Assembly (NCBI GenBank): GCA_049791475.1
Contig: JBAQZZ010000016.1
Coordinates: 8,395 to 72,394, forward strand
DNA length: 64,000 nucleotides
Reading direction: 5' to 3'
Source: Flavobacteriaceae bacterium
GTDB taxonomy: Bacteria; Bacteroidota; Bacteroidia; Flavobacteriales; Flavobacteriaceae
Shown here: positions 2,459-63,348 of the stretch, piece after piece
Layout: each line of letters begins with the position of its first letter
Numbering within the stretch: the first letter of the stretch is position 1
Position numbers and translations under genes: made by a program
Notes under the pieces: generated by a model
The model's input: the letters and a program-made list of their open reading frames with translations, nothing else
Databases searched by the model: none
What the model was told of the DNA's origin: nothing

Positions 2459-3991
2459 ATGAGCAACAAAAAAACCATAAAATCTGCGTTAATATCAGTT
2501 TTCAGTAAAGACGGATTAGAACCTATTGTCAAAAAATTAAACGACCAAGGTGTAACCATATACTCTACTGGTGGAACTGAAAAATTTATAAAAGATTTAG
2601 GCATTGATGTTATCCCTGTTGAAGATGTGACATCTTACCCATCTATTCTTGGTGGTCGTGTAAAAACATTGCATCCAAAAGTATTTGGCGGTATTTTAAA
2701 CCGTCAAAATCACGAAGGTGATATTGCCGAATTAATTGAATATGAGATTCCGCAAATTGATGCCGTAATTGTTGATTTATATCCGTTTGAAAAAACAGTT
2801 GCTTCTGGCGCTAGCAATCAAGATATTATTGAAAAAATAGATATTGGTGGTATTTCATTAATTCGTGCGGCTGCTAAAAATTATGCTGATGTTATTTGTG
2901 TGTCTTCAGTTGATAATTATGTAGAATTTTTAGAATTAATATCTAAAAATAACGGCACTATTTCTGAGGAAGATAGAAAACGTTTCGCTGGAAAAGCTTT
3001 TAATGTTTCTTCGCATTACGATACTGCCATTTTTAATTACTTCAACAAAAATCATGAAGAAGCTGTTTTAAAAATTAGTGAAACCAACGGAAAGGTTTTA
3101 CGGTACGGAGAAAACCCACACCAAAAAGGTTTTTTCTTTGGAGATTTTGATGAATTATTCAATAAACTTCATGGAAAAGAATTAAGTTATAATAACCTTT
3201 TAGATGTTGATGCCGCAGTAAATTTAATGCTAGAGTTTAAAAATGACGCACCAACATTTGCTATTTTAAAACACAATAATGCTTGTGGTTTAGCGCAGCG
3301 TGAAACACTTCATCAAGCTTACGTTGATGCATTAGCTGGCGATCCAGTTTCTGCTTTTGGTGGTGTTTTAATTAGTAATAAAGAAATTGATTTAGCTACC
3401 GCCGAAGAGATTCATAAGTTATTTTGTGAAGTGGTTATTGCGCCTTCTTTCTCTAATGAAGCTTTAGAACTCTTGAAAGGCAAAAAAAATAGGATTTTAT
3501 TAATTCTTCACGATATTCCGTTTCCAGAAACAACTGTTAGAAGTTGTTTAAATGGAGTTTTAGTTCAAGATAGAAACAATATTACAGATTCTGTTGAAGG
3601 TTTAAAAAATGTAACTAATACTACACCTACAACTAACGAAATTGACGATTTAATTTTTGCTTCAAAAATTTGCAAGCACACAAAATCTAATACCATAGTT
3701 TTAGCAAAAAACAAACAGCTGTATGCTAGCGGAACTGGGCAAACCAGTCGTGTGGATGCTTTACAACAAGCTATTCATAAAGCGCAATCGTTTAATTTTG
3801 ATTTAAAAGGTGCTGCTATGGCGAGTGATGCCTTTTTTCCGTTTCCCGATTGTGTAGAGATTGCAAAAAATGCTGGTATAACAGCCGTAATTCAACCAGG
3901 CGGTTCAATAAAAGATCAATTGAGTATTGATTATTGTAATGAAAACAATGTAGCCATGGTAATGACGGGCACAAGACACTTTAAGCATTAA
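2459..3991 (+). CDS. purH: bifunctional AICAR transformylase / IMP cyclohydrolase
   Basis: 510 aa. N-terminal MGS-like domain 'ALISVFSKDGL..STGGT' and C-terminal AICARFT domain ending 'TGTRHFKH'. Confidence 0.97.
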   Translation: MSNKKTIKSALISVFSKDGLEPIVKKLNDQGVTIYSTGGTEKFIKDLGIDVIPVEDVTSYPSILGGRVKTLHPKVFGGILNRQNHEGDIAELIEYEIPQIDAVIVDLYPFEKTVASGASNQDIIEKIDIGGISLIRAAAKNYADVICVSSVDNYVEFLELISKNNGTISEEDRKRFAGKAFNVSSHYDTAIFNYFNKNHEEAVLKISETNGKVLRYGENPHQKGFFFGDFDELFNKLHGKELSYNNLLDVDAAVNLMLEFKNDAPTFAILKHNNACGLAQRETLHQAYVDALAGDPVSAFGGVLISNKEIDLATAEEIHKLFCEVVIAPSFSNEALELLKGKKNRILLILHDIPFPETTVRSCLNGVLVQDRNNITDSVEGLKNVTNTTPTTNEIDDLIFASKICKHTKSNTIVLAKNKQLYASGTGQTSRVDALQQAIHKAQSFNFDLKGAAMASDAFFPFPDCVEIAKNAGITAVIQPGGSIKDQLSIDYCNENNVAMVMTGTRHFKH

Positions 3992-4055
3992 CAGCACATT
4001 TAATACGTTAAACACCGATAAAAAGTTTAAAATAAAAAGATACTTTATTTTAATA

Positions 4056-4063
4056 TAATTTTG
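4056..4063 (+). promoter_or_regulatory. candidate -7 promoter box (TAATTTTG) upstream of mreB
   Basis: Match to TAnnTTTG, 85 nt upstream of the mreB ATG. Confidence 0.35.
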
Positions 4064-4147
4064 AACACCCATAAACCACATATATTTATTAACTTTTATT
4101 ACATTTACGGGATTCATTTTCAAACCAATTAAAATCATTAATAGCAC

Positions 4148-5176
4148 ATGGGATTTTTCGACTTCCTAACCGAAGAAATTGCAATAGATTTAGGTACTGC
4201 AAATACACTTATTATTCATAACGACAAGGTTGTTGTTGATGCACCTTCTATAGTCGCCCGAGATAGAATTTCTGGTAAAATTATTGCCGTTGGGCAAGAG
4301 GCTAGCTTAATGCAAGGAAAAACTCATGAGAATATTAAAACCATCCGCCCTTTAAAAGATGGTGTAATTGCTGATTTTGATGCATCTGAGCAGATGATAA
4401 GTATGTTTATTAAAAACATACCTGCGCTAAAAAAGAAGTTTTTTACACCAGCTTTACGTATGGTTATTTGTATTCCTTCAGGGATTACTGAAGTTGAAAT
4501 GCGTGCAGTAAAAGAAAGTGCTGAACGTGTAAATGGAAAAGAAGTTTACTTAATACATGAACCCATGGCTGCTGCTATTGGTATTGGTGTAGATATTATG
4601 CAACCAAAAGGGAATATGGTTGTTGATATAGGTGGAGGAACAACTGAAATTGCTGTTATAGCTTTAGGAGGTATTGTTTGCGACAAATCAGTTAAAATTG
4701 CAGGTGATGTTTTCACTAATGATATTGTGTACTACATGCGCACACAACACAACTTATATGTTGGCGAGCGAACAGCAGAAAAAATAAAAATACAAATTGG
4801 TGCTGCAACTGAAGATTTAGAATTGCCTCCAGAAGATATGAGCGTTCAAGGTAGAGATTTACTTACCGGAAAACCAAAACAGGTTTCTATATCGTATAGA
4901 GAAATAGCCAAAGCTTTAGACAAATCTATTTTGCGTATTGAAGATGCCGTTATGGAAACCCTAGGGCAAACACCTCCAGAATTAGCTGCCGATATTTATA
5001 ACACTGGAATTTATTTAGCAGGTGGCGGCTCTATGCTTCGTGGTTTAGATAAGCGTTTATCTCAAAAAACAGATTTACCTGTTTATATTGCTGAAGATCC
5101 TTTGCGTGCTGTAGTTAGAGGTACTGGCATTACACTTAAAAACTTACCAAAATACAAAAGTGTATTGATAAAGTAA
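4148..5176 (+). CDS. mreB: rod shape-determining protein MreB
   Basis: 342 aa actin-like ATPase: 'IAIDLGTANTLI', 'VVDIGGGTTEIAVI', 'GIYLAGGGSMLRGLD'. Confidence 0.97.
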   Translation: MGFFDFLTEEIAIDLGTANTLIIHNDKVVVDAPSIVARDRISGKIIAVGQEASLMQGKTHENIKTIRPLKDGVIADFDASEQMISMFIKNIPALKKKFFTPALRMVICIPSGITEVEMRAVKESAERVNGKEVYLIHEPMAAAIGIGVDIMQPKGNMVVDIGGGTTEIAVIALGGIVCDKSVKIAGDVFTNDIVYYMRTQHNLYVGERTAEKIKIQIGAATEDLELPPEDMSVQGRDLLTGKPKQVSISYREIAKALDKSILRIEDAVMETLGQTPPELAADIYNTGIYLAGGGSMLRGLDKRLSQKTDLPVYIAEDPLRAVVRGTGITLKNLPKYKSVLIK

Positions 5177-5200
5177 AAGGACAAATTAGGTAAATAACCC

Positions 5201-6016
5201 ATGCAACAAATTATTAATTTTATAATAAGAAACAAAACGTTTTTGTTATTCTTGTTGCTGTTTTCTATTTCTATAATTTTCACTATTCAATCGCATTCGT
5301 ATCATAAAAGTAAGTTTATAAATTCGGCTAATTTTTTAACAGGCGGAATTTACAATACGGTAAATAATGTTTCTGGGTATTTCGATTTGAAATCTCAGAA
5401 TCAAATTCTATCTGAAGAAAATAATCGATTAAAATCACTTTTATATAACGCTGAAAACAATAACGATTCTACTTATATTGATAGTGTAACTTTCATAAAC
5501 CAGTATAGATTTACATCAGCTAATATAATACGGAATTCGTTTTCGGCAACAGACAACATGCTACTAATAAATAAAGGCAAAAATGATAGTATAAAAGAAG
5601 ATTTTGGAGTTATTACAAGTAAGGGGCTTTTAGGTATTATTAATAAAACAAGTAATAATTATGCAACTGTAATTTCTATTTTAAATACCACGAGCAATAT
5701 TAGTGCTAAGTTGAAAAAATCAAATCATTACGGCTCACTAACTTGGAATGGCAAAGACCCTAACATAACGCAACTTGTTGATATACCAAAGGTTGCAAAT
5801 GTTAAAATTGGAGACACTATAGTAACCTCTGGCTTATCTTCAATTTTCCCCAAAGGTATTTATGTAGGAACCATTGAAAATTTTAAACTTGATGATGCTG
5901 AAAATTATTATGAAATTAATGTGAAATTATTTAACGATATGACCAGCGTTGAACATGTTTATATTATAGAAAATATTGATGCTAAAGAAATCAATAATTT
6001 GTTAATACCAAACTAA
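5201..6016 (+). CDS. mreC: rod shape-determining protein MreC
   Basis: 271 aa with an N-terminal TM segment, a coiled segment (ENNRLKSLL) and 'GDTIVTSGLSSIFPKGIYVG'. Positioned between mreB and mreD. Confidence 0.85.
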   Translation: MQQIINFIIRNKTFLLFLLLFSISIIFTIQSHSYHKSKFINSANFLTGGIYNTVNNVSGYFDLKSQNQILSEENNRLKSLLYNAENNNDSTYIDSVTFINQYRFTSANIIRNSFSATDNMLLINKGKNDSIKEDFGVITSKGLLGIINKTSNNYATVISILNTTSNISAKLKKSNHYGSLTWNGKDPNITQLVDIPKVANVKIGDTIVTSGLSSIFPKGIYVGTIENFKLDDAENYYEINVKLFNDMTSVEHVYIIENIDAKEINNLLIPN

Positions 6017-9765: not shown

Positions 9766-10392
9766 ATGAAAAAAACAGTTCTTATCATTTTTGCTTCTTT
9801 TATAATTTCAAACTGTTCTAGTACAAAAAACATCCGTAATAGTTCATTTTCAAAAGAAGAGAGCCAATTAGTTTTAAGTGCTAATAGTCTAGTGCCTATG
9901 CGCGTTTTTAAAATTACCAACAAAAAAGATTCACTTGTATTACGAACAAAAAGCAGTTATGTAAAAGCAAACCCAAATGATGTGGTTTTACAACAATTTG
10001 TTAAACGGCTTTATGCTACAGTTAGAGATAGTATGTCTTTGGGTGTTGGTATTGCAGCACCTCAAGTTGGTGTTTTAAAAAATATTATTTGGGTACAACG
10101 TTTTGATAAAGAAAACGTACCCTTTGAAGTGTACTTAAACCCAAAAATTGTAAAATACTCAAAAGAAAAACAAACTGTTAAAGAAGGTTGTTTATCTATA
10201 CCCAATAGATCTGACACCTTAAATAGTAGAGCGTTTACTATTAACATAGAATATGACACCATGCTAGCTGAACATAAAACTGAAACTATTGAAGGATTTA
10301 CATCAGTTATATTTCAGCATGAAATAGATCATTTAAATGGTATTTTATATTTAGATCATTTAAAAAAAGAGGTTCGTGATGCTAAAAAGTAA
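9766..10392 (+). CDS. def: peptide deformylase homologue with N-terminal signal/lipoprotein-like peptide
   Basis: All three PDF motifs are present: 'GVGIAAPQVG', 'EGCLSIP', 'QHEIDHLNG'. The N-terminus 'MKKTVLIIFASFIISNCSST' looks like an export signal ending in Cys. Confidence 0.85.
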   Translation: MKKTVLIIFASFIISNCSSTKNIRNSSFSKEESQLVLSANSLVPMRVFKITNKKDSLVLRTKSSYVKANPNDVVLQQFVKRLYATVRDSMSLGVGIAAPQVGVLKNIIWVQRFDKENVPFEVYLNPKIVKYSKEKQTVKEGCLSIPNRSDTLNSRAFTINIEYDTMLAEHKTETIEGFTSVIFQHEIDHLNGILYLDHLKKEVRDAKK

Positions 10393-55602: not shown

Positions 55603-55662
55603 TGTCTCCTCGAGCGCAGTCGAGAGGTTTTTAAAGGTCTCGACTGCGCTCGACCAGACAAA
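55603..55662. repeat. 'empty' palindromic repeat (family C), solo hairpin
   Basis: The left arm tgtctcctcgagcgcagtcgagaggttt (55603-55630) and right arm ggtctcgactgcgctcgaccagacaa (55636-55661/2) are separated by ttaaa. The arms are identical to those flanking the GIY-YIG ORF at 61793/62144. Confidence 0.85.
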
Positions 55663-57065: not shown

Positions 57066-57075
57066 TAAAACGTCT

Positions 57076-57167
57076 TTACGAGGAACGAAGTGACGTGGTA
57101 ATCTGTAAAATTGAAGTTACAAATAAAAAAGATTGCCACAGCAAATAAAAATTTGCTTCGCAATGAC
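57076..57167. repeat. two-module hairpin repeat (family B), copy 1
   Basis: ttacgaggaacgaagtgacgtggtaatct (57076-57104) and agattgccacagcaaataaaaatttgcttcgcaatgac (57130-57167). Both modules recur at 59927-59955 and 59969-60006. Confidence 0.8.
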
Positions 57168-57183
57168 AAATAAAAAGTAAGTT

Positions 57184-59898: not shown

Positions 59899-59922
59899 CT
59901 TTATAACAATATTAAACTGTCT

Positions 59923-60006
59923 GTCATTACGAGGAGCGAAGTGACGTGGTAATCTTAGCGAAAGGAACAGATTGCCACAGCAAATAAAAATTTGCTTCGC
60001 AATGAC
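59923..60006. repeat. two-module hairpin repeat (family B), copy 2
   Basis: gtcattacgaggagcgaagtgacgtggtaatct + agattgccacagcaaataaaaatttgcttcgcaatgac. The second module is identical to 57130-57167. Confidence 0.8.
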
Positions 60007-61792: not shown

Positions 61793-62169
61793 TGTCTCCT
61801 CGAGCGCAGTCGAGAGGTTTATAATGAAATCATATTACGTTTACATACTAAAATGTGCTGATGGATTAACGTATACGGGAATTATTAATAATATCTCAAG
61901 GAGATTTGAAGAACACCAAAAAGGATTAAATAAAAGTTGTTTTACTTTTCAAAGAAGACCTACGGAATTAATATTTCACCAAGAATTTAATAATATAGAA
62001 CAAGCTATATATTTCGAAAAGAAAATCAAAAATTGGAGTGCTAAAAAGAAACTCGCTTTAGCCAATGGAGAATTTGATATGCTACAAATTTTATCTGAAT
62101 GTAGAAACGCAACCCATTCAAAATACAATCCTAATAACAAATAGGTCTCGACTGCGCTCGACCAGACAA
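61793..62169 (+). mobile_element. palindromic repeat (family C) carrying a GIY-YIG nuclease ORF in its loop; putative autonomous element
   Basis: Left arm at 61793-61820 and right arm at 62144-62169, identical to the arms of the empty hairpin at 55603-55662. The ORF occupies the loop to the nucleotide: 3 nt before the ATG, and the TAG shares its G with the right arm. Confidence 0.5.
61824..62144 (+). CDS. GIY-YIG nuclease family protein (COG2827/URI-type)
   Basis: 106 aa. 'YYVYILKCADGLTYTGIINNISRRFEEHQKG' (GIY..YxG..R..EH) and 'FEKKIKNWSAKKK' (E..IK.W.R.KK). Confidence 0.88.
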   Translation: MKSYYVYILKCADGLTYTGIINNISRRFEEHQKGLNKSCFTFQRRPTELIFHQEFNNIEQAIYFEKKIKNWSAKKKLALANGEFDMLQILSECRNATHSKYNPNNK

Positions 62170-63118: not shown

Positions 63119-63228
63119 ATTACAAATATAGTGAGTTGTTTTAATACAATAAAGAAATATTATATTAACTATACCCAAGTTTTTTTAAGTAAAAGAAGCT
63201 GTCTTAAAAATACAATATTTAACTTACT

Positions 63229-63300
63229 GTCACATTGAGCGCAGTCGAAATGCATTGAAATTCAGTATTATAAGTTTTTCGACTGCGCGCATAATGACAC
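63229..63300. repeat. palindromic repeat related to family C (gagcgcagtcgaaa / tttcgactgcgcgc)
   Basis: Arms at 63237-63250 and 63277-63290 are complementary at 13/14. They share the gagcgcagtcga / tcgactgcgc core with 55603 and 61793. The element lies inside an outer 19-bp inverted repeat. Confidence 0.65.
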
Positions 63301-63348
63301 TTGACTTGTCTTTTAAGACAGCCTCTTTTATTTTAGCTAAACGGAAAT

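Follow-up and report, generated by a model that had tools for sequence, protein, structure and literature searches.

A predicted GIY-YIG nuclease gene between inverted tagged hairpins in the kynurenine operon of a Flavobacteriaceae bacterium: a putative Ssn-like variant

Why does a small gene occupy precisely the gap between the two arms of an inverted repeat that also occurs, without the gene, a few kilobases upstream? The question is raised by a 64,000-nucleotide stretch of contig JBAQZZ010000016.1 of a Flavobacteriaceae bacterium (NCBI GenBank assembly GCA_049791475.1, positions 8,395 to 72,394 of the forward strand), hereafter the window, in whose numbering coordinates are given unless another locus is named. 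In its kynurenine operon, a left arm, tgtctcctcgagcgcagtcgagaggttt (61793-61820, + strand), which is a GTC-tagged hairpin ending 3 nt before an ATG, is followed by the letters 'ata' and by an open reading frame (ORF) of 106 codons (61824-62144, + strand) that starts at this ATG and encodes a predicted single-domain GIY-YIG nuclease, both Ssn-like and Slx1/UPF0213-like. The right arm, ggtctcgactgcgctcgaccagacaa (62144-62169, - strand), begins with the G of this ORF's TAG stop and is a hairpin of the left-arm type on the opposite strand. The arms are complementary at 21 of 25 positions (blocks of 5 and 16 matches) with CC/CC and GG/GG mismatches, and the complete unit, hairpin, gene and inverted hairpin, measures 377 bp. 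An earlier sequence-only reading had pointed out the ORF between the arms, their complementarity and the shared G, all of which we confirmed by re-reading the window. An empty doublet, with arms letter-identical to those of this filled unit and the same polarity (CCTC arm first, GGTC arm second), lies 6.1 kb upstream in the kynU-kmo spacer (55603-55661, + strand; arms 55603-55630 and 55636-55661, loop ttaaa 55631-55635); the same strings had been reported at these positions, with an end at 55662 that we correct to 55661, the next base being identical in both copies. That reading knew of no described GIY-YIG-based repeat system, but one was published in 2025 as Ssn/NTS (SRM), Ssn being single-domain GIY-YIG proteins (CDD cd10448) (Chenal et al. 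2025, Nat Commun 16:2388, PMC11893778). Our comparisons suggest that the window holds an Ssn-like variant, a divergent version from marine Flavobacteriaceae, rather than a proven member of Ssn.

Each arm is a hairpin of its own, made of a TGTC tag, one base, a covarying 4-bp stem, an invariant 12-nt core and the closing stem. In the left arm, the tag (61793-61796) precedes the stem CCTC (61798-61801) / GAGG (61814-61817) around the core GAGCGCAGTCGA (61802-61813); in the right arm, the tag reads GACA on the + strand (62165-62168) and the stem GGTC/GACC (62144-62147 and 62160-62163) encloses the core at 62148-62159. With one mismatch at most, the window contains 6 copies of the core against 0.01 expected, a number reached in none of 100 shuffles. 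We scanned for it, in addition to the window, 80 loci from one-genome-per-species contigs fetched by protein similarity (designated by L numbers; 1.5 Mb in total with the window), and all counts of arms, doublets and filled units given here refer to these fetched loci, not to whole genomes. At the same threshold, these loci and the window together hold 266 copies, so that the arms are a dispersed repeat family, in line with the sequence-only reading. Four out of four bases directly flanking the core are paired in 236 of the 266, with more than 10 stem types (including GGTC/GACC, CCTC/GAGG, TGCT/AGCA, GTTC/GAAC, GTCT/AGAC, and CATC/GATG), and TGTC is found five bases upstream of the stem in 232. 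Among 34 diverse units, each of the four stem pairs is paired in 31-33 sequences, with 11-23 double changes per pair; the stem covariation score reaches 0.884, compared with 0.308 in shuffles (0 of 500 attained the observed value) and with 0.11-0.19 after the partner column was shifted. Within-arm covariation of this kind accounts for the CC/GG mismatches between the arms, which implies that selection keeps the stem of each arm and not the pairing between arms. The idea of one palindrome holds for the inverted complementarity of the arms, but, given the within-arm compensation, they are better described as two independent GTC-tagged hairpins. Arms are as similar within loci as between them (identity 0.92 vs 0.91), and only the base after TGTC is more often alike within loci than between them (0.95 vs 0.38, n=20), a weak indication of concerted arm evolution. 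No Rfam family matched the arms at the gathering score, and no relevant one at E up to 10, in the window and the distant loci; the Acido-Lenti-1 match in L075 is unrelated to the arms, and a reading of the CTGAGC...GTCGAA variants as a hammerhead or other ribozyme was rejected because the core does not fit and Rfam offers no match.

The third, diverged copy announced by the sequence-only reading is indeed present, as a doublet at 63228-63299 (+ strand; arms at 63228-63250 and 63277-63299 with a 26-nt loop between them, and stems CATT/AATG and TTAT/AAAA). This doublet is itself nested in the loop of a larger 23-nt inverted repeat (63187-63209 / 63311-63333), a terminator-like host palindrome, and at the corresponding site of L083 a different host palindrome surrounds the hairpin elements, so that palindromes are nested in palindromes. 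In several genomes, a small palindromic insert (ATTATCAAAATCAAAATATATTTTGATTGAAGATACGAAC and relatives) splits the hairpin core between GAGC and GCAGT (L001 around 9931-9996, also L056, L063, and L083 11390-11560) and resembles a second-order element that targets the hairpin loop.

The association between gene and hairpins extends well beyond the window. Homologues 78-90% identical to the window protein occur in many Flavobacteriaceae genera, nearly always flanked by window-type arms, and the arrangement hairpin-gene-inverted hairpin is found 51 times, with about 13 variants, beside 21 simple empty doublets and 46 solo arms. The empty doublets found elsewhere have the polarity of the filled ones: read in the direction of the flanking genes, the CCTC arm precedes the GGTC arm. 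In a blind test, an inverted repeat of at least 14 nt surrounds the ORF in 73 of 83 homologues versus 7 of 83 controls shifted by ~1 kb, the opposite of a family whose copies are never bracketed, the outcome that the sequence-only reading had named as speaking against its idea. A related hairpin of the form TGTCA-stem-TGAGCYTGTCGAA-stem, whose right copy often lies within the last codons of the ORF, also brackets more distant homologues, with 47-56% identity, from Ignavibacteria, Nitrospirae, a candidate-phyla-radiation bacterium, Ferruginibacter (Chitinophagaceae) and Chryseobacterium. A second GIY-YIG clade, from metagenomes and ~35% identical to the window protein, has a different, NTS-like hairpin, TGTCATTCCTGCGAAGGCAGGAATCC, on both sides in 64 of 74 cases. 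This clade is 47% identical to a Neisseria gonorrhoeae homologue of SsnA (E=7e-21) and so belongs to Ssn proper. Each nuclease clade thus comes with its own hairpin type, and clade and hairpin sequence co-vary. For all comparisons with SsnA, the 94-aa N. gonorrhoeae homologue (L164 398-682) was used in place of N. meningitidis CAX49033.1; its source, NZ_CP119140.1 (L164: 1881878-1882950), and NZ_CP119142.1 are 2.17-Mb N. gonorrhoeae chromosomes labelled as plasmids in PLSDB. Tandem copies were also observed: in Dyadobacter (L070 8509-9909), an array of 7.9 copies (94% matches) of a 178-nt unit that includes a hairpin doublet lies immediately upstream of the GIY-YIG gene; the right arm is tandemly iterated with a 25-nt period in Maribacter, Arenibacter and Flavobacterium (L040 9674-10520, L050 9556-11397, and L053 4906-4967); and in L050 complete gene-plus-arms units are duplicated ~765 bp apart.

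By its sequence, the ORF encodes a small predicted single-domain GIY-YIG nuclease that is clearly homologous to Ssn at the profile level. A Pfam GIY-YIG domain (PF01541, E=1.4e-15, residues 4-76 of 106 aa) is the sole domain of this protein of less than 150 aa, and the predicted model (pLDDT 78.5) consists of one GIY-YIG fold and a C-terminal helix. The residues Y4, Y7, Y17, G19, R26, R27, E30, H31 and E65, which include the GIY-YIG motif and catalytic-type positions, are invariant in the window clade, and the family at large counts 7,247 representatives of 50%-identity clusters at E <=0.001. The closest solved structures by sequence (phmmer) are BH0048 (1zg2, E=1.2e-10) and EF2693 (1ywl, E=7.6e-7), and these two UPF0213 proteins also rank 1 and 2 in a Foldseek search with the model, followed by Slx1 and then UvrC, with I-TevI as a weak match at rank 49 (E=2.6). 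An hhalign comparison with an Ssn-type profile (99.6%, E=2.9e-24, 90 columns) supports the relationship to Ssn, and BLASTP gives 31% identity over 75 aa to the N. gonorrhoeae SsnA homologue and 35% to an Ssn-type paralogue. With a window-type hidden Markov model, an Ssn-type protein and BH0048 of UPF0213 obtain the same score (62 bits each), whereas the Ssn-type profile gives the window protein 61 bits and UPF0213 24-28 bits; these reciprocal scores place the window clade between Ssn and UPF0213. The ratio of nonsynonymous to synonymous substitutions (dN/dS) of the gene is 0.06-0.25, and 0.06-0.09 between genera, where dS is ~1 or more, at or near saturation, while the arms stay ~90% identical, indicating that protein and arms are both under constraint.

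These properties can be set against what is known of Ssn. The 94-aa SsnA of Neisseria meningitidis binds its hairpin repeat NTS (CGTCATTCCCGCGMAVGCGGGAATCYRG) as single-stranded DNA only and cuts it a few nucleotides upstream (5') of the tagged repeat, ignoring the reverse strand, double-stranded DNA and RNA (PMC11893778). A motif was reported near 71% of the Ssn homologues and on both sides of 42%, and the arrangement NTS-ssnA-NTS was likened to an insertion sequence (IS), to IS200/IS605 and to REP/RAYT, with a domestication proposed (PMC11893778). The REP/RAYT-like architecture that the sequence-only reading saw in the window stands, with its flanking tagged hairpins, its gene-less doublets and the bracketing of 73 of 83 homologues, but the likeness had already been drawn there. 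Bacteroidota are absent from the main text of that paper, which defines Ssn as single-domain proteins of <150 aa with a BLASTP match to N. meningitidis SsnA at E<1e-10 and at least 75% query coverage and with cd10448 (GIY-YIG_unchar_3) as the top conserved-domain match, and searches their repeats with the pattern HGTCWYN(0-2)YYVSBRHN(0-5)WNVSBRGN(0-2)RNCYNB (PMC11893778). The descriptive feature of Ssn genes, inverted hairpins of 20-50 nt with a GTC tag on both sides, is found at the window gene. BH0048 and EF2693, for their part, belong to the bacterial Slx1 family, and the known selfish GIY-YIG enzymes derive from the UvrC lineage (PMC1564403).

Comparison of orthologous spacers tells us about the history of the element. 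The operon around the window gene comprises kynU, kmo, a ridA-like gene, and genes for an aldehyde dehydrogenase, an SDR, 3-HAO, ACMSD and an O-methyltransferase. It recurs with the same gene order in about 47 of the 80 loci, with the GIY-YIG gene always co-oriented and lodged in one of four or five spacers (kmo-ridA or kmo-sdr, ridA-aldh, aldh-sdr, acmsd-omt). The acmsd-omt junction exists without any element, with overlapping stop and start (L006, L007, L008, L015, and L077), with a solo right arm (L003), with an empty doublet (L039) and with a filled unit (window, L083, L013, L014, and L066). At the kynU-kmo junction, the genes abut or overlap without a doublet in at least 11 other genomes, and a doublet occurs in seven other loci; in L083, the closest genome at 90% protein identity, the acmsd-omt spacer is filled and kynU-kmo lacks a doublet. 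Such presence and absence at both junctions, which the sequence-only reading had proposed to look for, implies that the arms are not simply conserved terminators. Paralogues of the same genus from different spacers group together in a weakly resolved tree, and frameshifted or truncated GIY-YIG copies occur in L066, L067, L069, L074 and L077. These sequence comparisons support the view that the element has moved or turned over across genomes. Two further comparisons were discarded: in the close pair L024 and L056 the alternative spacer content is an unrelated ORF and hence uninformative, and the apparent TAG of ORF remnants in long-looped empty doublets belongs to the arm and cannot distinguish filling from deletion. 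L083 also carries four tandem DUF6090 genes between ridA and the aldehyde dehydrogenase gene (2783-5758), which are absent from the window.

We consider it probable that the ORF encodes an Ssn-type nuclease, that the arms are its cognate recognition hairpins, and that the unit is IS-like, with the empty doublet as its non-autonomous form. If it works like Neisseria SsnA, the protein would require single-stranded DNA to bind a single arm, recognizing the 5' GTC tag, the hairpin and the 12-nt core, and its nick would lie a few bases 5' of this tag; as the tags point outward, one per strand, nicks are predicted at both outer edges of the 377-bp unit. Hairpin, gene and inverted hairpin would then act as a very small insertion-sequence-like element, and the ORF-less doublet would be to it what a REPIN is to a RAYT, both forms being gained and lost over evolutionary time at compact intercistronic junctions. 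The constant co-orientation with the operon makes expression by read-through probable, and, since GIY-YIG enzymes hydrolyse DNA and do not rejoin it, host repair or replication would have to finish the event. We infer the single-strand specificity, the position of the cut, the nuclease-driven spread and the route of integration; that the nuclease mobilises the repeats is likewise a proposal in the work on Neisseria (PMC11893778). A bolder version, which we hold only tentatively and find doubtful, is that the 377-bp unit is an autonomous mobile element whose sole protein is a 106-aa GIY-YIG nickase of single-stranded DNA, spreading together with the gene-less doublets into single-stranded loops of palindromes and into intercistronic junctions. 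The nesting of ORF in doublet and of doublet in host palindrome, and elsewhere of a mini-palindrome in the hairpin core, would fit such an element.

Several observations weigh against an IS-like Ssn-type unit. The fold of one arm taken alone as single-stranded DNA is weak (-2 to -3 kcal/mol, z-value not significant), whereas the whole empty doublet forms one long hairpin (-23.8 kcal/mol, z=-8.2), so that the case for the arm as a hairpin rests on covariation. The pairwise match to the SsnA homologue (E=6e-9) falls short of the published E<1e-10, and a genome-sized search would weaken it further; the published SRM pattern has 0 hits in the window and matches neither arm. The tags of Neisseria ssnA face inward and those of the window outward, which means that arm geometry is not fixed across the family, and the enzymatic behaviour expected of the Flavobacteriaceae clade is borrowed from Neisseria SsnA. 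Neither the three window copies nor the comparisons of junctions revealed a target-site duplication. Within-species polymorphism was not seen, the copies retrieved by exact-protein look-ups (other metagenome contigs) and L083 being all filled, and the loci, picked by similarity to the query, form a sample biased towards the kynurenine operon. Finally, conservation of the gene is similar to that of the neighbouring metabolic genes (median 79% vs 70-89%) and the position of the element is stable within genera, so that slow, mostly vertical inheritance or domestication fits better than active jumping.

Domestication, which was also proposed in the published discussion of Ssn (PMC11893778), would make the unit a host system that is no longer mobile and whose gene keeps its ancestral flanks; we regard this as possible, although not as the explanation to be favoured. 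Its role might be to cut single-stranded DNA that bears the hairpins, whether incoming or exposed, and thereby to modulate recombination near the kynurenine operon in a way comparable to the proposal made for Neisseria transformation. The strong purifying selection (dN/dS 0.06-0.09), together with the neighbour-like conservation and stable position within genera, is what such a role predicts, and the location of all five hairpin elements of the window in the kynurenine region (two of them from a second family described below) echoes the clustering of NTS near particular genes. Against it speak the turnover evident from presence/absence and spacer shifts, the pseudogenes among the copies, and the tandem arrays and nested insertions, which look like proliferation; moreover, no host phenotype is known in Flavobacteriaceae. 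The same pseudogenised copies (L066, L067, L069, L074, and L077) would fit the cycle of gain and decay expected if the ORF alone spread by homing, the nuclease breaking a pre-existing empty doublet and repair copying the ORF via the ~26-bp arms. In the window, the empty and filled arms are letter-identical and the ORF replaces only the 5-nt loop, and movement mostly among the spacers of one operon, with clustering of same-genus paralogues from different spacers, also points in this direction. We nevertheless judge homing unlikely. At 26 bp, the arms are close to the minimum length that RecA-dependent recombination requires, and a cut analogous to that of Ssn would fall not in the loop but outside the doublet, 5' of the tag, and would be made in single-stranded DNA only. 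Solo arms and the arrival of doublets at new junctions would be left unexplained, the doublets needing another route, and the selfish GIY-YIG enzymes known are of the UvrC lineage, not Slx1-like (PMC1564403).

The hairpins could also serve at the RNA level, where they would stabilise the transcript between cistrons or be sites of processing or termination, with the GIY-YIG gene as an unrelated passenger, a reading to which we give very little credence. REP elements have such RNA roles in E. coli, the elements lie in operon spacers co-oriented with transcription, and in the empty copy the left arm followed by TTTTT forms a terminator-like pattern. A passenger, however, is not expected to be bracketed across phyla by hairpins specific to its clade, no Rfam family matches, some hairpins, such as those of the third copy, lie between genes of the opposite strand, and SsnA does not bind RNA (PMC11893778). 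As for chance similarity or ordinary conserved terminators, this terminator-like match of the empty copy is all that can be said for them, against 6 cores where 0.01 are expected, 266 copies with covarying stems, and the absence of the elements from many orthologous junctions, and they can practically be dismissed. The IS-like Ssn-type unit thus remains our preferred explanation.

The kynurenine region of the window also contains a second, unrelated family of tagged-hairpin doublets, at 57072-57168 (kmo-ridA spacer) and 59922-60006 (sdr-hao spacer), with the sequence (T)GTC-ATTAC-GAGGAGCGAAGTGACGTG-GTAAT ... ATTGC-CACAGCAAATAAAAATTTGCTTC-GCAAT-GAC. This family is present in the operon of other genera too (L001, L007, L009, and others), and no ORF-filled copy of it was seen in the loci examined. 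The hairpin elements of the window number five, three belonging to the GAGCGCAGTCGA family and two to the second, and all are located in or just beyond the kynurenine operon, from 55.6 kb onward; both families fall within the last 9 kb, and the first 55 kb yielded no real repeat family. We did not find a second GIY-YIG gene in the 64-kb window, and searches of NCBIfam, PHROGs and PADLOC yielded no matches. A scan for sigma-70-type promoters retrieved 36 sites against 32.9 expected, that is, no excess, with a model that does not cover Bacteroidota promoters.

How such repeats multiply and whether the gene-plus-hairpins unit is mobile were left as questions in the Ssn paper, and for both the Flavobacteriaceae clade offers a comparative handle, with one operon, several spacers and one junction in which all four states are found. 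As this clade would be missed by the published threshold and motif pattern, the extent of nuclease-repeat pairs has probably been underestimated, and each new pair is a candidate site-specific nuclease for single-stranded DNA with a new specificity, for which the discoverers proposed practical use. If the bolder version outlined above were true, the 377-bp unit would represent the smallest bacterial class of autonomous DNA elements and the first mobile element to be based on a GIY-YIG domain of the Slx1-like type.

Among known systems, the UPF0213/Slx1-like proteins BH0048 and EF2693 share the minimal single domain of the window protein and are the closest to it by sequence and fold; Firmicutes UPF0213 genes, unlike the window gene, are linked to a methyltransferase gene, and we know of no report of hairpin-flanked UPF0213 genes. 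Free-standing GIY-YIG homing genes (I-TevI, Seg) resemble the window gene in that a nuclease gene is central in a site that also exists empty, but their products are enzymes of the UvrC-related lineage that cut double-stranded DNA and possess DNA-binding domains of their own, whereas the window target is a multi-copy repeat. The coexistence of a long gene-bearing and a short gene-less form with identical inverted ends recalls the pairs of MITEs and autonomous elements; in contrast with MITE/DDE transposons, there is neither a DDE domain nor a target-site duplication, and the ends are hairpins with within-arm covariation. The resemblance to REP/REPIN-RAYT and IS200/IS605 lies in the small nuclease gene between inverted tagged hairpins, the gene-less intergenic doublets, the lack of target-site duplication and the presumed recognition of single-stranded DNA, with the difference that a GIY-YIG hydrolase, which forms no covalent intermediate, stands in place of the HUH tyrosine (Y1) transposase; the unit is also half the size of IS200, and its gene may have several copies per genome. 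With Ssn/NTS, the window system shares a single-domain GIY-YIG gene for a protein of ~100 aa between inverted GTC-tagged hairpins, a repeat dispersed in intergenic DNA and clustered around particular genes, and the co-variation of nuclease clade and repeat. It differs from the Ssn repeats in its arms, built of a 4-bp covarying stem around an invariant 12-nt core and not of a long stem with a short loop, and, compared with the published report (PMC11893778), empty versus filled doublets and polymorphism at orthologous sites are described only for the Flavobacteriaceae system.

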